Source of the DNA: Candidatus Omnitrophota bacterium
GTDB taxonomy: Bacteria; Omnitrophota; Gorgyraeia; Gorgyraeales; Gorgyraeaceae
Reading direction: 5' to 3'
Assembly: GCA_018902915.1 (NCBI GenBank)
Contig: JAHIPS010000081.1
Coordinates: 1 to 58,357, forward strand
Length of the DNA: 58,357 nt
In this document: piece by piece, positions 8,363 through 17,977 of the stretch
Layout of the letters: the number at the start of each line of letters is the position of its first letter
How positions within the stretch are numbered: position 1 is the stretch's first letter
Notes under the pieces: model-generated
Seen by the model: the letters and a program-made list of their open reading frames with translations, nothing else
Database searches by the model: none
Told to the model about the DNA's origin: nothing
Made by a program: the position numbers and the translations under genes

Positions 8363-9088
8363 ATGAGTTTATTAGAGCCACAGGAAGACTTAAAGGTATT
8401 AGTAGAGACATTGAACTTCAAACAAAAGGTCGATCGTTCACTACAGCTTATAAAGGAAGGCTATGATAAATACGGAGACGGTTTTGTAGTAGCCAATAGC
8501 CTTGGCAAGGATTCTGTTGCAGTTTGGCATCTTGCAAAACGCGTAGATCCGAAAATACGAGGGTTTATCGTAACTACCAGGTTTAAACCCAAAGAGACGG
8601 TCAAGTTTATGAATGAAGAGGTGAGAAAATATCCTGAGCTTAAGGTTTATAAAAACGATGCGAAGATACCAGATAAGCTATATGAGACAGATCCGAACAA
8701 ATGCTGCGATATATTAAAGGTCGAGCCTGTTAAGCACGCAGTTGAAGAGATGGGAGTTACGTGCTGGGTAACAGGCCTTCGCTGCACAGAGGGTCGCACC
8801 AGGACAGATTTTAAAGAGGTCGAAGAGCGCGATAAAGGATTAATAAAATTAAACCCTATTCTCATATGGAAAGAACGCGAGGTCTGGCAATATCTGGCCT
8901 TATATGGTGTAAAGGTTAATCCTCTATATACTGAAGGTTACCGCTCTCTTGGATGCGCGCCTTGCACTAAGATCACCAATGAGGATAATGAACGTGCAGG
9001 ACGATGGATAGGCACGAGTAAATGTGGAGGCGAATGCGGTATTCATACACGGCCTTTGAAGGTAAACGTTAACGGAGACGGCATCTAA
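8363..9088 (+). CDS. cysH: phosphoadenosine/adenosine phosphosulfate reductase (Fe-S, APS-type features)
   Basis: PAPS-reductase fold (NSLGKDS, TGLRCTEGRTR), cluster cysteines KCCDILK and LGCAPCT, and a C-terminal ECGIH. Confidence 0.85.
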   Translation: MSLLEPQEDLKVLVETLNFKQKVDRSLQLIKEGYDKYGDGFVVANSLGKDSVAVWHLAKRVDPKIRGFIVTTRFKPKETVKFMNEEVRKYPELKVYKNDAKIPDKLYETDPNKCCDILKVEPVKHAVEEMGVTCWVTGLRCTEGRTRTDFKEVEERDKGLIKLNPILIWKEREVWQYLALYGVKVNPLYTEGYRSLGCAPCTKITNEDNERAGRWIGTSKCGGECGIHTRPLKVNVNGDGI

Positions 9089-10054
9089 GTGGTTATTACG
9101 CTGGTATTAATCATAGTCTCTGTTTTTGTGGCATTAAATATGGGGGCGAGCGGTTTTTCAGTTTCTTTTACTCCCTCATATGGCAGCCGTTTGCTGAAAA
9201 AGTCCAGGGCAGTTGTTCTTTATGGACTTTGTGTTTTTGCCGGTGGGTTGCTCATAGGGCCGAGGGTTGTAAGTACCCTGGTCAATAAGATCTCGCTAGC
9301 GCAGCTTAACCCATATTCCGGTCTTTTGATCTTGTTTTCGGCAGGGGCCATGATGTTTTTAAGTAACATGCTGAAAATTCCGCAGTCCACGAGTTTTGTA
9401 ACTGTGGCGAGTTTTCTGGGGGCGGGCTTATATTACGGAAAGGTAAACTGGCATACGGTTTCAAAGATTATAATCGTAGCAGCTGTTTTTTCAGCCCTTT
9501 CGTTTATAATCACGTATCTTATTAAAAGAAAGATCTACCCGCCGCACAGGGGCAACCTGCATCTTTATGAGAAGTTTCATATTCACAGGAATAAATTTAA
9601 AAATTTTATAATCTGGACTGATATGTATTCGGCCTTTGGGATAGGCACGAATAATGTCGCAAATGTTGTGGCTCCCCTGGTAGGTTCATTGGGCATAAGC
9701 CCGTTTTTAGCCCTTGGATTGTCTGCTCCTCTTTTTGGGTTGGGGGCATATTTCTTTGGAGAGAGGGTCTTGAAGACAGTGTCCAGGGACATAGTGCCGA
9801 TCGGTGAAATGTCAGCGGCCATTGTTTCATCGATCACAGCGACCTTTGTCATTATCGCGTCGTTATTAGGATTACCTGCGCCTTATGTCCAGTTTACTAC
9901 TTTTTCAGTACTTGCGATAAGTTCTGTCAAAGACGGCACAAGGCATACAGCAGGAAAATCTGTTTTTAAAAGGATAATATCCGCATGGATATGCGTGCCC
10001 GTAGCCACAGTTTTTTTGAGTTTTTTATTACACTTATTTTTTATTAAAAGGTAA
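9089..10054 (+). CDS. PiT/PHO4-family anion permease (sulfate uptake inferred from context)
   Basis: 321 aa, polytopic, with PiT-like repeats (NMGASG..., GTNNVANVVAPL). GTG start abuts the cysH stop. Confidence 0.75.
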   Translation: MVITLVLIIVSVFVALNMGASGFSVSFTPSYGSRLLKKSRAVVLYGLCVFAGGLLIGPRVVSTLVNKISLAQLNPYSGLLILFSAGAMMFLSNMLKIPQSTSFVTVASFLGAGLYYGKVNWHTVSKIIIVAAVFSALSFIITYLIKRKIYPPHRGNLHLYEKFHIHRNKFKNFIIWTDMYSAFGIGTNNVANVVAPLVGSLGISPFLALGLSAPLFGLGAYFFGERVLKTVSRDIVPIGEMSAAIVSSITATFVIIASLLGLPAPYVQFTTFSVLAISSVKDGTRHTAGKSVFKRIISAWICVPVATVFLSFLLHLFFIKR

Positions 10055-10055
10055 C

Positions 10056-10454
10056 ATGATTTATATAAATAGAGATCTTAGAAAGGTGCTTATAGAACAC
10101 TCTAAGGATGAATTTCCGAATGAGGCGTGCGGTCTTTTGGCTGGAAAAGATAACAGAGTCGAGAGGATTTATGGAATGAGAAATACCGATAAGAGCGCAA
10201 CGTCATTTTTTATGGACCCGCAGGAACAGCTGAAGGTCATGAAAGAGATGCGCGCTTCTGGCCTTGATTTTATAGGCGTATATCACTCTCATCCTGAGAC
10301 AAAGGCATATCCTTCAGCTCACGATGTTGAGCTTGCATTTTATCCTGAAGTTTCGTATGTAATTGTCTCATTAAAGGATGGAGATAATCCAGATATATGT
10401 TCATTTAAGATTGTAGAAGGGAAGATCACAAAAGAGGAAGTGAGAGTCGAATGA
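10056..10454 (+). CDS. JAMM/MPN+ metalloprotease (Mec/HcyD/QbsD-like)
   Basis: NEACG plus HSHPETKAYPSAHD, which is E...HxH-x7-S-x2-D. Confidence 0.85.
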   Translation: MIYINRDLRKVLIEHSKDEFPNEACGLLAGKDNRVERIYGMRNTDKSATSFFMDPQEQLKVMKEMRASGLDFIGVYHSHPETKAYPSAHDVELAFYPEVSYVIVSLKDGDNPDICSFKIVEGKITKEEVRVE

Positions 10455-11485
10455 GTTTTGTAGTAGTTGGCACAAATCACAGATATAGCCATATTGAGCT
10501 AAGAGAGGAAATATCTTTCTCAAAGAGAGGGCTCCAGGATGCCTTTAATTTCTTGAGAGAGACAGGTGTCTTGAAGTCCAGCGTTATCCTTTCTACCTGC
10601 AACAGGGTAGAGATATATGCTTCTACAGGTACGGCTGAGTCTGGAATACACCAGATAAAGGATTTTCTCTCTAGATTTTACGAGATCAATGGCAAAGACC
10701 TCTGGCCTTACCTTTATATATATAGGGATGAAGACGCCTTAAGGCATTTATTCAGGGTCGCATCAGGCTTGGATTCCCTGATCTTGGGTGAATCGCAGAT
10801 CTTGGGTCAGGTGAACTCTGCATTTCATGAGTCAGGAAAGAATGGCTTTGTAGATCCTTCTTTAGGAGAGATTTTTAATTCTGCGATCTCATCAGCAGGA
10901 AAGGTACATTTACAAACCAGCATATCTGAAGGGAAGGTGTCTATAGGGAGCGTGGCTGTAGATTTTATAAAGGAAAGAATAGGAAGTTTTTTAAGTAAAA
11001 ATATCTTAATTATAGGCGTTGGCAAGGTTACAGAATTGGTTTTGAAGTATCTGGAGAAAGAAGGCAAAAACGTAGTTTTTATTTCTAATAGGACTTTTGA
11101 ACGGGCTCAGTCTCTGGCTCGTCAGATTGGCGCAAAGGCGGTTAAATTTGACAATTTAAAGGAGTATTTAAGTAAAGCAGATGTAGTCATCACAGCAACA
11201 AAGAGCCCGCATTTTATTATTAATAAACAGATTATAGAAGAAGCTGTCAGTCAAAAACGCTTACTAATTGTAGATCTGGCTCTGCCAAGAGATGTCGATC
11301 CTCGGATAAAAGAGATAGATAGGATAGAATTATTCGATATAGAGGACTTAACGAAAGTTATTCAGAGGAATAGAGATAAGAAGAAACATGAGGCTCTTAA
11401 GGCCGAGCAGATTATAGAAGACGAGGTACAGAGATTATGCCAGGAACTGTCAGGGTTGGGACAAGAAAGAGCCCTCTTGCGCTGA
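10451..11485 (+). CDS. hemA: glutamyl-tRNA reductase (short C-terminus)
   Basis: VVGTNHR, active-site TCNRVEIY and the GVGKV Rossmann motif. It ends 49 nt inside the next gene. Confidence 0.85.
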   Translation: MSFVVVGTNHRYSHIELREEISFSKRGLQDAFNFLRETGVLKSSVILSTCNRVEIYASTGTAESGIHQIKDFLSRFYEINGKDLWPYLYIYRDEDALRHLFRVASGLDSLILGESQILGQVNSAFHESGKNGFVDPSLGEIFNSAISSAGKVHLQTSISEGKVSIGSVAVDFIKERIGSFLSKNILIIGVGKVTELVLKYLEKEGKNVVFISNRTFERAQSLARQIGAKAVKFDNLKEYLSKADVVITATKSPHFIINKQIIEEAVSQKRLLIVDLALPRDVDPRIKEIDRIELFDIEDLTKVIQRNRDKKKHEALKAEQIIEDEVQRLCQELSGLGQERALLR

Positions 11486-13509
11486 AACAAGTGGAAGAAG
11501 TTCTAGTTGGGCTAAAAAAATTTCATCCTGATGTAGGATTTGATATTGTTACCATAGATACATATGGAGATATGGATAAAAAAACACCTATATCAAATAT
11601 AGAAGGAACGGATTTTTTTACAAGAGAAATAGACCATGCGCTTTTAAGAGACGAGATTGATATTGCTGTTCACAGCGCTAAGGATTTACCTGACAACTTA
11701 AAAGAGGGGATCAAGATAGCGCTTATTACTGAATCAATCGATCCATACGACTGTTTAGTTTCAAAATCCGGGTTAAAACTTAGCGAACTTCCTCCAGGGG
11801 CAAAGATAGGGACGAGCAGTTCGCGCCGCAAGACACAATTGAAGAAATACAGGAGTGATTTTCAGATCGTAGATATACGAGGAAATATTGAAGAACGTTT
11901 AAGATTACTTGATGATCGCGAGCGACGAGTGACGAACGACGAGCGACGAATAGATGCCATTGTTATTGCAGCTTGTGCGCTGTTGAGATTAGGTTTAAAA
12001 CAACGCATAACCGAAAGATTGCCTTTTGAGATTCTAAGGCCACATCCTTTACAGGGTTCGTTGGCAGTAGTAACAAGAAAGGACAAGGTTGATTTGATAA
12101 ATCTCGTAAAGACAAAGAAGGTCTATATTGTTGGTGCAGGGCCAGGAAGGCCGGATTTAATAAGTGTGAGAGGATTGCGCATTCTTAAAGAGGCCGATGT
12201 AGTCATATATGATTATCTTGTCGATAAGGCCCTTTTGGATGAGACTAAGCCAGAATCTGAGCTCATATCTTGCGGCAAGCTTGGCAAGAATAGATTTTCA
12301 GGAAAGTCTATCGAGGCACAGGCAAGGATAAGTGAGCTAATTGTTGAGAAGGCTAAAGAGGGAAGGCGTGTTGTAAGACTTAAGAATGGTGATGCAACTA
12401 TTTTTAGCCGCCTAAGAGAAGAGCTCGAGGCATTAACTAGAAATAAGATAGAATTTGAAATAGTGCCTGGCGTTACAGCTGCAAGCGCAGCAGCAGGTTT
12501 TAGCGGCATACCACTTACAGATAGGCATGATTCATCCAGCGTTATTTTTTTAACAGGACACGAATCTGATGATAAGAGAAAAACTAGTATAGATTGGAAT
12601 AGAGTGGCTGATTTTGAATCCTTGGTTATATACATGGGTGTTGATAGTATCTCAAAAATAGTCTCAGAGTTAATAAAATCAGGAAAATCCGGCAACACTC
12701 CAGCAGCCGTAGTATCAAAGGCAACAGACATAAACCAGAAAACAGTCAGGGGCAAGTTGAAAAATATTGCTGAAAAGGTAAGGACAGGAGATATTGAGCC
12801 GCCAGCGATATTTATTATTGGAAAAACCGCAGAGCTGGAAAAGGATTTTAACTGGTTCAGGAAGAATAAAAGGGTTTTATTTACAGGTCTGTCTAAGGAG
12901 AGATTCTTTACAGACGGGACCTATTACCACCTGCCTTTGATTGACATAGGGCCACTCGATGACTATAAGGAATTTGACAGCCATTTGAAGAAAATCAGAC
13001 AATTTGACTGGATAGTATTTGCAAGCCGCTATGGCGTGGAGTATTTCTTCGGAAGACTTAAAAAAATTGGGCATGACTCGAGAATACTTAACAACATAAA
13101 AATCGCAGGTGTAGGAAATTCTACAAAGGCAAGGCTTCTTGATTTTGGCATTTCAGCGGATCTGGTGCCGCAAAAGGAATCTTCAGAAGGGTTGATCGAG
13201 GAGTTTGAGAAGATAGATATCAGAGGGAAGAACATATTTTTGCCCCGCTCTGATATATCTGATAAAGGCTTGGAAAAGGCCTTTCAGAAACTCGGAGCAA
13301 TAATAGCCACTTCGTCCGCATATAGAAATAGAATTTCCAGAGATTTGCCTGATTTGGACCTGACCAGCTTTGATGAGGTCATGTTTACGAGCCCTTCTAC
13401 AGTAAGGAATTTTAGAAAAAGATATGGAAGATTGCCCGAGCATGTCAAGGCAAAGTGCATAGGGGATGTGACTTTGAGGGAGGCAAAGAGATGCCGGTTA
13501 ATAGATTAA
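11437..13509 (+). CDS. trifunctional fusion: porphobilinogen deaminase domains 1-2 (no domain 3), uroporphyrinogen-III C-methyltransferase and uroporphyrinogen-III synthase
   Basis: aa 1-about 220: RVGTRKSPLALKQ...HSAKDLP...GTSSSRRKTQL...QGSLAVV (HemC). aa about 225-470: VYIVGAGPGRPDL...VRLKNGDATIF...VPGVTAASAAA (CobA/SUMT). aa about 475-690: HemD-like. Confidence 0.8.
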   Translation: MPGTVRVGTRKSPLALKQVEEVLVGLKKFHPDVGFDIVTIDTYGDMDKKTPISNIEGTDFFTREIDHALLRDEIDIAVHSAKDLPDNLKEGIKIALITESIDPYDCLVSKSGLKLSELPPGAKIGTSSSRRKTQLKKYRSDFQIVDIRGNIEERLRLLDDRERRVTNDERRIDAIVIAACALLRLGLKQRITERLPFEILRPHPLQGSLAVVTRKDKVDLINLVKTKKVYIVGAGPGRPDLISVRGLRILKEADVVIYDYLVDKALLDETKPESELISCGKLGKNRFSGKSIEAQARISELIVEKAKEGRRVVRLKNGDATIFSRLREELEALTRNKIEFEIVPGVTAASAAAGFSGIPLTDRHDSSSVIFLTGHESDDKRKTSIDWNRVADFESLVIYMGVDSISKIVSELIKSGKSGNTPAAVVSKATDINQKTVRGKLKNIAEKVRTGDIEPPAIFIIGKTAELEKDFNWFRKNKRVLFTGLSKERFFTDGTYYHLPLIDIGPLDDYKEFDSHLKKIRQFDWIVFASRYGVEYFFGRLKKIGHDSRILNNIKIAGVGNSTKARLLDFGISADLVPQKESSEGLIEEFEKIDIRGKNIFLPRSDISDKGLEKAFQKLGAIIATSSAYRNRISRDLPDLDLTSFDEVMFTSPSTVRNFRKRYGRLPEHVKAKCIGDVTLREAKRCRLID
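11921..11948 (+). repeat. heptanucleotide tandem repeat AGCGACG|AGTGACG|AACGACG|AGCGACG inside hemC
   Basis: Four consecutive 7-mers read directly. They encode part of the insertion ...DDRERRVTNDERR... in the conserved RGNI..RL...DAIV segment. Confidence 0.85.
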
Positions 13510-14507
13510 GAAGACTCAGGAGGAACAGTGCTATAAGAGACTGGGTCAGCGAGACTGTGCTAAGACCCAAGGATCTCATTTTGCCTTATTTTGTCATCGA
13601 TGGAAAGGGTGTTGATAGACCTATTAAATCTCTGCCGGAAGTTAGTCATCTATCGATTGACAAATTGCTCAAAGAAATAGCTAAGGTGGAAAAAAGAGGG
13701 ATAAGGTCTATTCTTTTGTTTGGAGTACCTAAGAAAAAGGACAAAATAGGATCTGAGGCGTATAATAAGGACGGCATTGTTCAAAGAGCGACAAAAGCAA
13801 TAAAGAAAGAATTCGAAGATTTGGTCGTAATAACAGATGTGTGTCTGTGTAGTTATACGTCTCACGGACATTGTGGTATCATTAAGGGACAAGGGACCCC
13901 ATACCACAAGGGTACGGAGCAGGCAAGTGACAAGAGACAAGGGTATATTATAGATAATGACAAGACTTTAAAGATTTTGGCGAAGATCGCTCTATCTCAT
14001 GCTGAAGCTGGTGCTGATCTAGTGGCGCCTTCAGCAATGATGGACGGACAGGTAATGTCAATAAGAGAAGGCTTAGACAAAAATGGATTTAAGGATATAG
14101 GGATAATGGCCTATGCAGCTAAATATGCGTCGAATTTTTATGGCCCTTTTAGAGAGGCATTAGATTCTGGTCCACACTTCGGAGACAGAAAGACCTATCA
14201 GATGGATTTTAGAAATTCAGACCAGGCCCTGAGAGAGATAGGCCATGATATTGAAGAGGGCGCTGATATTGTAATGGTAAAACCAGCCCTTTCATATCTG
14301 GATATTATTTATCGGGCAAAAGAGAAGTTTAATGTACCTGTAGCCGCGTATAATGTAAGCGGTGAATATGCGATGGTGAAGGCATATTCTCAGGGACAGG
14401 GGATTGAAAAAGAGTTGGCTCTGGAGATTTTGACGAGCATAAAGCGTGCTGGGGCGGATTTTATAATTACATACTGGGCAAAAGAGGCAGCGGGATGGTT
14501 AAACTGA
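13491..14507 (+). CDS. hemB: porphobilinogen synthase (Zn-type)
   Basis: DVCLCSYTSHGHCG Zn site and IVMVKPAL. ATG 13491 has GGGAGG 8 nt upstream (the ORF track starts at 13455). Confidence 0.9.
   Translation: MPVNRLRRLRRNSAIRDWVSETVLRPKDLILPYFVIDGKGVDRPIKSLPEVSHLSIDKLLKEIAKVEKRGIRSILLFGVPKKKDKIGSEAYNKDGIVQRATKAIKKEFEDLVVITDVCLCSYTSHGHCGIIKGQGTPYHKGTEQASDKRQGYIIDNDKTLKILAKIALSHAEAGADLVAPSAMMDGQVMSIREGLDKNGFKDIGIMAYAAKYASNFYGPFREALDSGPHFGDRKTYQMDFRNSDQALREIGHDIEEGADIVMVKPALSYLDIIYRAKEKFNVPVAAYNVSGEYAMVKAYSQGQGIEKELALEILTSIKRAGADFIITYWAKEAAGWLN
13926..13939 (+). repeat. two degenerate heptamers AGTGACA|AGAGACA within an approximately 15-aa insertion in hemB
   Basis: The insertion KGQGTPYHKGTEQASDKRQG lies between GHCGII and IDNDKT. 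The DNA also carries ACAAGGG three times (13880-13945). Confidence 0.7.
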
Positions 14508-15745
14508 GCGACAAGCGACAAGCGACAAGCGACAAGGAGCTTTTTAGCGAAGCCAGACGATTTATTCCTGGGGGCGTAAATAGTCCGGTGAGATCTTTTA
14601 AGGCTGTTGGGGGAAGTCCTGTCTTTATAAAGAAGGCCTACGGGGATAAGATTTATAGTGAATGCGGCGAAGAGTTTATTGATTACTGTCTTTCCTGGGG
14701 CGCTTTGATCTTAGGGCATACTCACAGGGAAGTAATCAAGGCTATAGAGAGCTCATTAAAGAACGGAACAAGTTTTGGCGCAGCTACAAGATTGGAGACA
14801 GAATTGGCAATGCTTATTGCAGAGGCTGTTCCTTCAATCGAACAGATTAGATTAACAAATTCAGGCACTGAGGCAGTTATGGGCGCGGTCAGACTTGCAA
14901 GGGCATACACTGGGAAAAATAAGATTATAAAATTTCAAGGCTCGTATCATGGGCACGCAGATTATCTTTTGGATTGCACAGGCGTGCCAGAGGACTTTAA
15001 GAGACATACAATTGTAGTTCCGTATAACGATATAGGCGCTGTTTTAGAAGCAGCTGAGCTGCACAGGGAAGATTTAGCTGCGATAATAGTTGAGCCAGTT
15101 TCCGGGAATTGCGGAGTGGTATTGTCAGACATTGGTTTTTTGCAGGGTTTGAGAAAGATCGCTGATAAATACAACACAGTTCTTATTTTCGATGAAGTTA
15201 TTACTGGATTCAGGGTTTCATACAGCGGCGCGCAGGGAATTTTTGGAATAAAAGCAGATATTACCTGCTTAGGTAAGGTTATAGGCGGGGGATTGCCGGT
15301 AGGCGCCTTTGGAGGAAGAAGGGAAATTATGGATCTTTTAGCGCCCGAAGGAGACGTCTATCAGGCAGGGACATTGTCAGGTAATCCAGTCGCGGTCACA
15401 GCCGGGATCACGACCTTGAAAATACTGAAAGAAATAAATCCATACCCAGATCTGGAAACCAAAACAAAGAAACTATGTGAAGGGATTATGGCGAGCGCTA
15501 AAAAATATGATATAAAGCTGAGGGCTAATTATATTAGTTCTATGTTTAGCATATTTTTTGGAGAAAATGGACAGGATAAGGGATTATTTAAAAAGTTTTT
15601 CCACGGATTATTAAAAAGAGGTATTTATTTTTCACCATCTGGTTTTGAGGCAAATTTTTTGTCAACCGCGCATAGTAATGAAGATGTAAAGAAGACATTA
15701 GATGTGATCGATGAGACATTTGAAAGTTTAAGGAGGTCAGAATGA
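14495..15745 (+). CDS. hemL: glutamate-1-semialdehyde 2,1-aminomutase
   Basis: [10 protein letters not shown] and PLP-Lys region CLGKVIGGG. It overlaps the hemB stop by 13 nt. Confidence 0.9.
14507..14534 (+). repeat. perfect heptanucleotide tandem repeat (AGCGACA)x4 between the hemL start codon and its conserved N-terminus
   Basis: Read directly. It begins at the last base of the hemB stop codon and encodes [10 protein letters not shown]. Confidence 0.9.
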
Positions 15746-16875
15746 ATATTCTAATCAATGGTAAAAAAGAAGAGTTAAAAGATGTTGTTACAGTGGCTAA
15801 GCTTTTAGAGCAGAAAAAGATCAGACCTGAGGTCGTGACTGTAGAATTGAACGATAAGATCATAGAAAAGAGCAAATATAATGAAATCCAGCTCAAGGAC
15901 AATGACAGAGTGGAGTTTGTCTATTACATGGGAGGCGGATCCGGAAATAATTCCAAGCTGATGGAAAATGTCCTGGAGTCGATAGGCAATACGCCCATGG
16001 TGAAACTTAATAAGATTGTAACCGAAGATATGGCCCGCATATTCGCAAAACTCGAGTTTTTTAACCCAGGCAGCAGCGTCAAAGACAGGATATGCCTTTC
16101 TATGATCGAGGATGCTGAAAACAAGGGGCTTCTTTCCAAGGGTTCCACCATAATCGAGCCCACAAGCGGAAATACCGGGATAGGTCTTGCAATGATTTGT
16201 GCTGTCAAAGGCTATAAATGCATAATCACTATGCCCGAGACAATGAGTCTCGAGAGAATCTATATACTCAGGTCTTTCGGCGCCGAGGTCATTCTTACTT
16301 CGGGCGCAGAAGGCATGAAGGGCTCTATTAAAAAAGCTGAAGAGTTACTAAAGAAGACACCAGTGAGTTTTATGCCCCAGCAGTTCAAGAATAAGGCAAA
16401 TCCTGCTATTCATAGAGAGACAACGGCCAAAGAGATATTGGATAGCACTGATGGCAAAGTGGATGCGTTTGTTGCCGGCATAGGAACAGGGGGGACTATA
16501 ACAGGCGTAGGAGAAGTTTTAAAGAAACATAACCCTGATGTTAAGATAATAGGGGTCGAACCAGCATCGAGTGCTGTGTTGTCTGGAAAAGGACCTGGGC
16601 CGCATAAGATTCAGGGAATCGGCGCGGGATTTGTACCGGATGTTTTAAATCGTCAGGTAATCGATGAGATAATTCAGGTTAAGGACAGTGATGCTTTTAA
16701 AACCTCAAGGAGATTAGCCAGGGAAGAAGGATTGTTTGTCGGTATATCAGCAGGCGCAGCAGCATGGGCAGCTATAAAGGTGGCAAAAAATCTTGACAAA
16801 GAAAAAAGGGTGGTCGTGATTTTTCCTGATACTGGTGAGAGATATTTTTCAATGCAGCAGTATTTCGAGGCATAG
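15742..16875 (+). CDS. ThiS-like sulfur-carrier domain fused to cysteine synthase (CysK/CysM family)
   Basis: aa 1-66 form a ThiS-like domain ending [10 protein letters not shown]. The linker is SGNNSKL. A CysK-type domain follows ([12 protein letters not shown] Lys in [21 protein letters not shown]). There is no stop between the domains. Confidence 0.8.
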
Positions 16876-16886
16876 GGAGCAATTAT

Positions 16887-17744
16887 ATGACTGAATATAA
16901 TATAAAAGAACTCAAGAGTGGTGGGTTGATGAAGCAGAAAGAAAAGGATATATTTTCTCTTCGTCTGCGTATAGTTGGAGGTTTTGTCAAATCCGAACAG
17001 CTGATCAAGCTTTCGGAGATAGCCGATAGATTTGGTAAAGGATATATACATTTGACCACAAGACAAGGCATTGAGATCCCGAACGTAAACATCAAAGACT
17101 TTGAGAAAGTTAAAAAGGAATTAAACGAAGCTGAGCTTCAGATGGGCGCATGTGGCCAGAGGGTAAGGACAGTAACTGCATGCCAGGGAAAGGAATGCAG
17201 TCATGGCTTAATAGATTGTCTAATGCTCGCAAGAGAGATCGATCATAAATATTTTGGCATAGGCGGCCACCCTCATAAATTTAAGATAGGGATTACTGGC
17301 TGTCCAAATGCATGTATTAAACCTCATGAAAATGACTTGGGCATATTAGGCAGATTAAAGAAAAGGTTCGTAAGAGAAAAGTGTAACTATTGCGGGCTCT
17401 GCGCAGAGATCTGTCCAGTAGGCGCAATAGAGGTGGATAAGGACGATGAGAAGATAGTATTTAATGCAGAGAAATGCATTGGATGCGGAGATTGTGTGTA
17501 TTCCTGCCCGACTGATGCGTGGCAAAAAAGGCAGGAGGGCTATACTATTTTTGTCGGTGGCAAGATGGGAAAATTCCCGAAGCTCGGCATAAAGGCCTTT
17601 GACTTTATTGAGACAAAAGAAAAGGTCTTTGAGGTCATAGAAAAGACATTAGAGTTTTATAAAAAGTTCGGCAATAAAGGCGAGAGATTCAGGGAGACAT
17701 TGGACAGAGTAGGAGTGGAGAAATACAAGGAGACGGTTTCATGA
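16887..17744 (+). CDS. small assimilatory-type sulfite reductase (siroheme/4Fe-4S with inserted ferredoxin domain)
   Basis: TTRQGIEIPNV, TACQGKECSHG...TGCPNACIKPHENDLG, and ferredoxin motifs CNYCGLCAEICP and CIGCGDCVYSCP. Confidence 0.75.
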   Translation: MTEYNIKELKSGGLMKQKEKDIFSLRLRIVGGFVKSEQLIKLSEIADRFGKGYIHLTTRQGIEIPNVNIKDFEKVKKELNEAELQMGACGQRVRTVTACQGKECSHGLIDCLMLAREIDHKYFGIGGHPHKFKIGITGCPNACIKPHENDLGILGRLKKRFVREKCNYCGLCAEICPVGAIEVDKDDEKIVFNAEKCIGCGDCVYSCPTDAWQKRQEGYTIFVGGKMGKFPKLGIKAFDFIETKEKVFEVIEKTLEFYKKFGNKGERFRETLDRVGVEKYKETVS

Positions 17745-17977
17745 GTGATGCAGTGCCAAACGAAGTCTTGAACTTGGAGAATATAGCGTGTCCGAATAAT
17801 TTTGTCAGGACAAAATTGAAACTTGAGGAGATGGAAACTGGTCAGACACTGGAGGTAATTTTGGATGATGGCGAGCCCATCAGAAATGTGCCTCGAGCCG
17901 TAAAGGAAGAAGGCCACGAGATTCTAAAGGCAGAAAAGATAGATAATAAATGGAAGATATTGATTAAAAAAATATGA
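17741..17977 (+). CDS. TusA/SirA-family sulfurtransferase
   Basis: 78 aa with the conserved Cys-Pro (NIACPNNFVRTKLKLEEM) and ...LEVILDDGEP. Its ATGA overlaps the sulfite reductase stop. Confidence 0.8.
   Translation: MSDAVPNEVLNLENIACPNNFVRTKLKLEEMETGQTLEVILDDGEPIRNVPRAVKEEGHEILKAEKIDNKWKILIKKI

Follow-up and report, generated by a model that had tools for sequence, protein, structure and literature searches.

Hydroxymethylbilane (HMB) synthase, also called porphobilinogen deaminase or HemC, is the textbook example of an enzyme that makes its own covalent primer and keeps it on a conserved cysteine. The canonical enzyme has three domains, as in the proteins of E. coli (313 amino acids (aa); 1PDA, 1AH5 and 2YPN), B. 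megaterium (4MLQ) and human (HMBS; 3ECR and 7CCX), and its dipyrromethane is attached through a thioether to C242 (E. coli numbering). We describe here a HemC that has only the first two of these domains. It is the N-terminal module, called HemC′ below, of a 690-aa open reading frame (ORF) in which it is fused to CobA (uroporphyrinogen-III C-methyltransferase, SUMT) and HemD (uroporphyrinogen-III synthase). The ORF lies on a 58,357-nucleotide (nt) stretch of Omnitrophota DNA (contig JAHIPS010000081.1, our C61), which we refer to as the window and which belongs to an assembly of 1.8 Mb in 128 contigs that is 86% complete with 3.6% contamination. HemC′ shares with the canonical enzymes the fold of domains 1 and 2, the catalytic Asp, the pyrrole-binding Arg, Ser, Lys and Gln residues and the place in the hem operon, and it passes the TIGR00212 model; unlike them, it has neither the deaminase C-terminal domain PF03900 nor the cofactor Cys, its lid is more acidic, and R101 and T154 are not kept. 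Our preferred reading, to which we assign a probability of roughly 55%, is that residues 1-226 form an active HMB synthase of a two-domain clade in which the Cys242-type anchor was lost once and the growing chain would be held non-covalently.

The Pfam matches in the 690-aa protein are PF01379 at residues 5-219 (219.2 bits), PF00590 (SUMT) at 228-444 and PF02602 (HemD) at 497-686, and PF03900 was not detected in it. The TIGR00212 (hemC) model scores 227.8 bits against a cut-off of 164 with only positions 1-212 of its 293 aligned, and the deaminases in the Protein Data Bank (PDB) align with HemC′ only over about residues 5-218 of their own approximately 312. When HemC′ was aligned explicitly with the E. 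coli HemC of the MG1655 record, it ended ahead of the Cys242 loop. In an AlphaFold2 (AF2) model of the full-length fusion, with a mean predicted local distance difference test (pLDDT) score of 91.6 and a predicted template modelling (pTM) score of 0.75, disorder is limited to residues 163-168 and 284-286, and a helix at 218-224 is separated by three residues from a strand at 228-233, so that CobA is tethered in the model where domain 3 would start. The first-pass annotation of this DNA, made from the sequence alone, had assigned the first 220 or so residues to HemC domains 1 and 2, followed by SUMT with no room for domain 3, and had seen no remnant of domain 3 in another frame. Both observations hold, as does the comparison with HemC structures that it had proposed: a six-frame search found PF03900 nowhere in the assembly, even at E<=10, which disposes of a hidden or frame-shifted domain 3, of a stand-alone domain 3 and of a full-length second hemC among the sequences assembled. 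The search that it had suggested for a stand-alone domain 3 or a second hemC did turn up a second hemC, on contig C82, though neither a full-length gene nor a copy of domain 3.

A substitute anchoring Cys elsewhere in the module can be rejected, since none is conserved there. We aligned 63 short modules and compared residue conservation between these and 47 full-length HemC sequences. The best column, C180 of the window protein and A172 of E. coli, holds Cys in 43% of the short modules, in 66% of those from Omnitrophota and in 9% of the full-length enzymes, and nine of the 63 modules, as well as the C82 paralogue, contain no Cys at all. The genes around hemC were also compared, by clustering 2337 ORFs from 109 loci. 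No neighbour family was common at short hemC and missing at full-length loci, the maximum being 11 of the 63 loci. Neither the module nor the neighbouring genes therefore support the suggestion of the first-pass annotation that the Cys is supplied elsewhere, although a distant partner might still act in trans.

The two-domain form is a family trait and not, as the earlier annotation had taken it to be, a peculiarity of this gene. We sampled 201 Omnitrophota genomes and scored them for PF01379 and PF03900 above cut-off; PF01379 was present in 111 and PF03900 in 68. About 43 of the 111 HemC-bearing genomes, many of them 94-99% complete, thus have the two-domain form with no detectable domain 3, and all five sampled genomes of the window's family are among these. 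The best 120 database homologues of the HemC part are proteins of 208-262 aa with PF01379 only, except for three fusions of 391 aa (P0152, P0181 and P0232), from some Omnitrophota, in which an HD domain (PF01966) stands N-terminal to the two-domain HemC. Most members of the family are stand-alone proteins of 209-262 aa, and the remaining architectures are HemC′-CobA-HemD (674-748 aa), HemC′-HemD (452-561 aa), HemA′-HemC′ (502-558 aa) and HD-HemC′ (391 aa). More than 599 matches were obtained when species-representative genomes were scanned with a motif; of the 80 loci kept, 36 have an in-frame domain 3 just downstream and 44 lack it. A search of a protein atlas yielded clusters of PF01379-only proteins of about 220 aa, which we take as leads only.

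The pattern extends to the Chlamydiota. In a sample of 80 genomes, each at least 90% complete, PF03900 was not found at all, whereas 65 genomes contain PF01379 and 65 contain HemE; the 15 genomes without PF01379 are the same as those without HemE. Many of the HemC-positive genomes are closed, at 1.0-1.2 Mb, and carry hemC as open frames of 235-262 aa. Searches of whole genomes at E<=1 found no PF03900 in a Parachlamydia metagenome-assembled genome (MAG), in Prevotella sp. DNF00663 or in one further MAG, and no PF03900-like ORF was found in genomes G000 and G201-G203, in the 43 Omnitrophota genomes or in the 80 Chlamydiota genomes.

Maximum-likelihood trees, built from domain 1-2 sequences only, place the short modules together. 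In a tree of 31 rows with E. coli as outgroup, all 20 modules without domain 3, the window's included, form one clade on a long stem with support of 100/99. A second tree of 111 rows puts 63 of 63 complete modules of this kind, again with the window's among them, in one clade (Shimodaira-Hasegawa-like approximate likelihood ratio test (SH-aLRT) 88, inner node 95). Its members come from Omnitrophota, Chlamydiota, Bacteroidota, Spirochaetota, Margulisiibacteriota, Kiritimatiellota and WS1, and those from Bacteroidota include the isolate Prevotella sp. DNF00663 (locus L070). Repeated loss of domain 3 is ruled out by this single clade, and the ORF of the lone outlier, L107, is truncated where its contig stops. 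A short tail kept by some of the stand-alone forms can be aligned to the first helix of domain 3 in E. coli HemC and is apparently left over from that domain. Several public MAG labels among these loci look wrong (L044, L038, L053, L054, L060, L063 and L096): 'Planctomycetia' contigs are identical or nearly so to Omnitrophota genomes (L044 equals L024), a 'Bordetella parapertussis' MAG contig (L096) is nearly identical to L099 from Actinomycetota, and a 'Chlamydia trachomatis' MAG (L063) is, at 1.7 Mb, too large for that species.

Several observations argue that the short form is a working enzyme. R11, S13, Q19, D46, F62, H80, S81, K83, D84, S129, R132, R149, R155, R176 and Q198 (E. coli numbering) are invariant in all 63 short and all 47 full-length sequences; they comprise every residue of domains 1 and 2 by which the solved enzymes hold cofactor or substrate. 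The equivalents of R11, S13, Q19, D46, F62, K83, D84, S129, R132, R149, R155, R176 and Q198 were located in the window's HemC′, in which the catalytic Asp, D84 of E. coli, is D83. An AF2 model of residues 1-226 (pLDDT 92.3, pTM 0.87) was matched by Foldseek to the solved deaminases of E. coli, B. megaterium, human and Arabidopsis (1pda, 4mlq, 7ccy and 4htg), with template modelling (TM) scores normalised to the query of 0.81-0.90 and root-mean-square deviations (rmsd) of 1.3-1.8 Å. The ratio of nonsynonymous to synonymous substitution rates (dN/dS) relative to the closest orthologue is 0.19 for HemC′, 0.17 for CobA-HemD and 0.22 for HemA, values which indicate that HemC′ is under purifying selection at a level like that of the neighbouring enzymes. 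HemC′ has moreover been fused repeatedly and independently to other enzymes of the pathway, namely HemD, CobA-HemD and HemA. For the chlamydial members, a pangenome study lists porphobilinogen deaminase together with HemE and HemY among the genes common to C. abortus and C. trachomatis (PMC3899948).

The short clade also has changes of its own around the active site. Its lid signature D59-F60-F61-T62 is present in the window protein, and these residues occur in 94%, 90%, 100% and 100% of the clade, respectively; in E. coli numbering the clade-specific changes are G60 to Asp (94%) and L61 to Phe. The median net charge of the lid is -2 in the short forms versus 0 in the full-length enzymes. R101 and T154 are found in 100% of the full-length enzymes and are relaxed in the short clade, and the residues around the Q198-G199 loop are bulkier in the latter. 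From the alignments, the relaxation of R101 and T154 and the bulkier surroundings of Q198 would suit an enzyme that has adapted to the absence of domain 3. R101 presumably corresponds to R116 of the human enzyme, a residue in contact with domain 3, and this contact would explain why R101 is relaxed in the clade.

The anatomy of HemC′, its conservation and single origin, its genomic context and its co-occurrence with HemE are shown above; from these we infer both its enzymatic activity and its non-covalent mechanism. Most probably, hydroxymethylbilane is the product of this enzyme and no cofactor is anchored to a Cys. Domain 3 would have been lost once, in a monophyletic clade, and the short form would then have been maintained in several phyla. 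The conserved Asp (D83) would deaminate the porphobilinogen units, which would be joined in the Arg/Ser/Lys cleft between domains 1 and 2 with the growing chain held there non-covalently. The chain could start from a dipyrromethane-like primer that is tightly bound and not linked, or from the first porphobilinogen itself, and in the latter case aminomethylbilane would be made and deaminated at the end. According to Battersby's work, the canonical deaminase is said to accept aminomethylbilane, and on chemical grounds a free chain with an aminomethyl head would therefore be a plausible intermediate; as a speculation, the acidic lid could hold the charged aminomethyl head. In the fusion, the product would pass to the HemD module and then to the CobA module of the same polypeptide to give precorrin-2 for siroheme, and siroheme would serve the sulfite reductase of the same operon. 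To the more specific proposal, that two-domain HemC uses no covalent cofactor and that the non-covalent primer is the first porphobilinogen or a free dipyrromethane, its head possibly held by the acidic lid, we would give slightly less than an even chance.

A number of points weigh against our preferred reading. In the accepted mechanism, the Cys loop of domain 3 holds the cofactor and pulls it past the catalytic Asp (PMC8561815; PMC7242693), and this element is absent from HemC′. A non-covalent chain would need other means of being retained, of being moved and of being counted to four units. A non-homologous substitute for domain 3 is undetectable by the hidden Markov models (HMMs) and Pfam families that we used, and a gene absent from an assembly that is 86% complete may still exist in this genome.

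The primer might instead be attached covalently to another nucleophile of domains 1 and 2 in an enzyme that is likewise an active HMB synthase, and the candidates would be the lid Asp D59, through an ester, or Cys180 where it is present. No other clade-specific substitution is as strong as that at D59, which sits in the lid of the active site beside the invariant F61, and Cys180, which is enriched in the clade as described above, stands one helical turn ahead of the invariant R184. Cys180 is not conserved, however, the modules devoid of Cys lack it altogether, and we know of no precedent for an ester-linked dipyrromethane, so we regard a covalent primer of this kind as unlikely. Still less probable in our view is that the anchoring Cys, or a lid in place of domain 3, is given in trans by a protein not homologous to domain 3, in the fusions perhaps by the CobA, HemD or HemA module. 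The tight coupling of hemA′ and hemC′, with overlaps of 49 or 59 nt and four in-frame fusions, could be taken to speak for such a partner, as could the start of CobA in the triple fusion three residues past the point where domain 3 is expected to begin. Yet most members of the clade are stand-alone proteins, the fusion partners vary by lineage, a short HemA is also found beside full-length HemC, the neighbour comparison yielded no family specific to short hemC, and no PF03900-like ORF was found in any of the genomes listed above.

The module has lost a feature regarded as essential, and it could for this reason be something other than an HMB synthase, such as a remnant that has no activity, a domain that binds porphobilinogen or has a regulatory role, or an enzyme whose product is altered; HMB would then be made in another way. 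We doubt this strongly, because the module is under the same purifying selection as the neighbouring enzymes, its catalytic Asp and pyrrole-binding residues are invariant, no other PF01379 or PF03900 gene was found in the many near-complete genomes in which the remainder of the pathway is retained, and in the Chlamydiota its presence and absence coincide exactly with those of HemE. The inactive or decaying copy considered by the first-pass annotation is unlikely on these grounds and also in view of the single origin of the form over several phyla. The triple fusion itself could be an error of assembly or sequencing in which a stop or start between hemC and cobA was lost; in the closest relative the hemC stop directly abuts the cobA ATG, so a one-base error could merge the two genes. 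This has only a very slight chance of being correct, as the identical 690-aa protein (P0001) is on record from two contigs, the junction shows clean read-through with a full C-terminal HemC′ helix, and at least two other branches acquired this architecture independently. The question of domain 3 is in any case unaffected by whether the fusion is real.

Table 1. Features of the hem region, with positions counted from the first nucleotide of the window
Feature	Coordinates	Strand	Basis or remark
hemA′, glutamyl-tRNA reductase without C-terminal dimerisation domain, 344 aa	10451..11485	+	Pfam, TIGR01035
hemA/hemC overlap, 49 nt	11437..11485	+	GAGG 10 nt upstream of hemC ATG
Fusion ORF HemC′-CobA-HemD, 690 aa	11437..13509	+	ORF listing, Pfam, NCBIfam
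HemC′ module, porphobilinogen deaminase domains 1 and 2 only, residues 1-226	11437..12114	+	PF01379 5-219
Heptanucleotide tandem repeat, about 4.4 copies, coding for a 9-residue insert in a domain 2 surface loop	11919..11949	+	Tandem Repeats Finder (TRF), pattern search
CobA module (uroporphyrinogen-III C-methyltransferase, SUMT), residues 226-476	12112..12864	+	NF004790, TIGR01469
HemD module (uroporphyrinogen-III synthase), residues 497-686	12925..13494	+	PF02602 142.5 bits
hemB (ALAD)	13455..14507	+	PF00490 match begins at residue 16 of GTG-started ORF
hemL (glutamate-1-semialdehyde aminomutase)	14495..15745	+	PF00202
Small siroheme-type sulfite/nitrite reductase-like protein	16887..17744	+	NIR_SIR_ferr, NIR_SIR and Fer4 domains

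For the other two modules of the fusion (Table 1), the scores are clear for CobA and divided for HemD. The CobA module passes NF004790 with 274.3 bits (cut-off 198) and TIGR01469 with 266.3 bits (cut-off 185). The HemD module far exceeds the PF02602 gathering score of 27.5 and falls far below the cut-offs of the NCBIfam HemD equivalogs, for example with 88.2 against 275; HemD sequences are known for fast divergence, and in a search of its own genome this module is the single HEM4/HemD match in the assembly. In the syntenic operons of relatives, a stand-alone hemC of 209-226 aa is followed by a 467-aa cobA-hemD gene, and residues 226-690 of the fusion are 85% identical to one such CobA-HemD protein (P0003). 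In the closest relative (L005), in which both the HemC and the CobA-HemD parts are 83-85% identical to the fusion, the cobA ATG immediately follows the hemC stop, and L006 shows a 4-nt overlap between hemC and cobA. Since the genes are separate and abutting in these relatives, the fusion needs only a small change at the hemC/cobA junction. The 31-row tree has the window module as sister to the stand-alone L005 gene and the triple fusion in at least three separate places of the short clade, from which it follows that the fusion arose repeatedly. Only this fusion to CobA-HemD, and not the two-domain form, is local and recent.

The insert in domain 2 that is encoded by the heptanucleotide repeat is specific to this genome, being found in no aligned relative, and it holds the sole disordered segment of HemC′ (residues 162-168). 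The repeat, (AGYGACR)n, occurs in frame within hemC′ (11919-11949) and also in hemB (13926-13939) and at the hemB/hemL junction (14507-14536); all seven matches to the pattern in the window fall in these three sites, with 0.08 expected. In the relative L005 the heptanucleotide repeat is found at the hemB/hemL junction only.

The hemA′ gene upstream is also shortened. Its product has GlutR_N at residues 6-156 and Shikimate_DH at 174-303 and no GlutR_dimer (PF00745), and it scores 357.7 bits on TIGR01035 (cut-off 209.55) with only positions 2-336 of 416 aligned. This agrees with the first-pass annotation, which had described hemA as short at its C-terminus and as overlapping the fusion gene by 49 nt. 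PF00745 is above cut-off in none of the 44 HemC-bearing genomes of the window's class and is present in most HemC-bearing genomes of other classes; a HemA model of 338 positions, PRK00676, also exists in NCBIfam. Within the class, short HemA also occurs with three-domain HemC, and other classes combine full HemA with two-domain HemC. Short HemA is therefore not a specific partner of short HemC, and it has no specific tie to the loss of domain 3.

The hemA stop, TGA, falls within the HemC codons for L-K of the conserved LALKQ motif. Among the loci surveyed (L005, L006, L021-L024, L034-L044, L093 and L111), the overlap of 49 nt recurs in 10 related loci and one of 59 nt is found in a second subclade, which includes the C82 copy; full-length hemC loci mostly have a 4-nt overlap with hemA, or a gap. 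In-frame HemA′-HemC′ fusions occur at four loci, L002, L015, L036 and L069, the last from Bacteroidales. With so long an overlap a single indel yields a fusion, and these fusions may therefore be neutral. A programmed -1 frameshift that would make a HemA-HemC protein was considered and rejected, as inspection by eye only showed no X_XXY_YYZ slippery heptamer in the 49-nt overlap.

The hem genes sit inside a sulfate-assimilation operon, whose other genes flank them at 8363-10454 and 15742-17977 of the window. Its order is 3′-phosphoadenosine-5′-phosphosulfate (PAPS) reductase, a PiT-type transporter, JAB, hemA, the fusion, hemB, hemL, ThiS-PALP and sulfite reductase. The true start of hemB is likely the ATG at 13491, which would overlap the fusion ORF by 19 nt, judging from the position of the ALAD match and from gene calls in relatives, L005 having the same 19-nt overlap. 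The siroheme-type reductase listed last in Table 1 is the likely consumer of the pathway product. The operon also contains a JAB/MPN protease, a ThiS-PALP fusion resembling CysO-CysM and a TusA-like ORF, and these sulfur genes suggest cysteine synthesis through a protein thiocarboxylate. In the relative L006 (7339-8936), hemB and hemL are separated by two inserted frames, one MtrA-like/DUF4346 (379 aa) and the other of 153 aa with no Pfam match.

The gene order at the second PF01379 locus of this genome, on contig C82 (L002:192-3608), is CysG_N-like (157 aa), an in-frame HemA′-HemC′ fusion (502 aa), CobA (240 aa) and HemB; HemD was not seen in the examined stretch of this locus. Its HemC part stops right after domain 2, its HemA part is very divergent, and the two HemC copies of the genome belong to different subclades. 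Some 3 kb downstream, at C82:26717, there is a NIR_SIR gene, and each hem cluster adjoins a small siroheme-type gene of this kind. HemE was not found in this assembly. Given these NIR_SIR genes, the lack of HemE in the assembly and the sulfate-assimilation operon, the tetrapyrrole pathway here most likely serves siroheme synthesis.

The short clade is large and ancient, and genomes that have retained the other steps of heme or siroheme synthesis carry no HemC apart from its members. The anchor would be either dispensable or replaced by some other element, and either would change the accepted mechanism. If there is indeed no covalent cofactor, an anchor that has been described as universal would be dispensable, and the Chlamydiota, a phylum with human pathogens, would together with many uncultured lineages use a mechanistically distinct HMB synthase. 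Cultured carriers of the short form exist, among them the Prevotella isolate and Chlamydiaceae with closed genomes, and the three-enzyme fusion would be a natural construct leading from porphobilinogen to precorrin-2.

A full-text literature search found no description or test of a two-domain HemC, and comparison with the PDB by sequence and by Foldseek found no solved structure of one. Fusions of CobA and HemD (SUMT/UroS) have been described in Desulfovibrio and clostridia, and such proteins of about 467 aa are common in Omnitrophota; here hemC′ is joined to them in the same frame, which brings three enzymes together. CysG, which combines SUMT with precorrin-2 dehydrogenase/ferrochelatase, is likewise a multifunctional siroheme-pathway fusion built around SUMT (PMC7242693). 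The CobA part of our fusion matches the C-terminal half of CysG (NF007922, positions 216-449); the N-terminal CysG module is not in the fusion ORF, and a separate CysG_N-like gene stands in the C82 cluster. A close counterpart of HemC′ is NF002202/PRK01066, a curated model of 241 positions named 'hydroxymethylbilane synthase', which is also two-domain, with no domain 3, and whose name is itself an annotation. Chlamydial members of the clade match this model best, and the Parachlamydia protein passes it with 252.2 against 251 bits, whereas the window module, from a different, Omnitrophota branch and fused to CobA-HemD, scores 203.7 bits. By these scores the window module is a clade relative of the NF002202 proteins and not the chlamydial equivalog. 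The short form is thus already present and named in the databases, and what we describe is a new variant within a known enzyme, of which this gene is one member.

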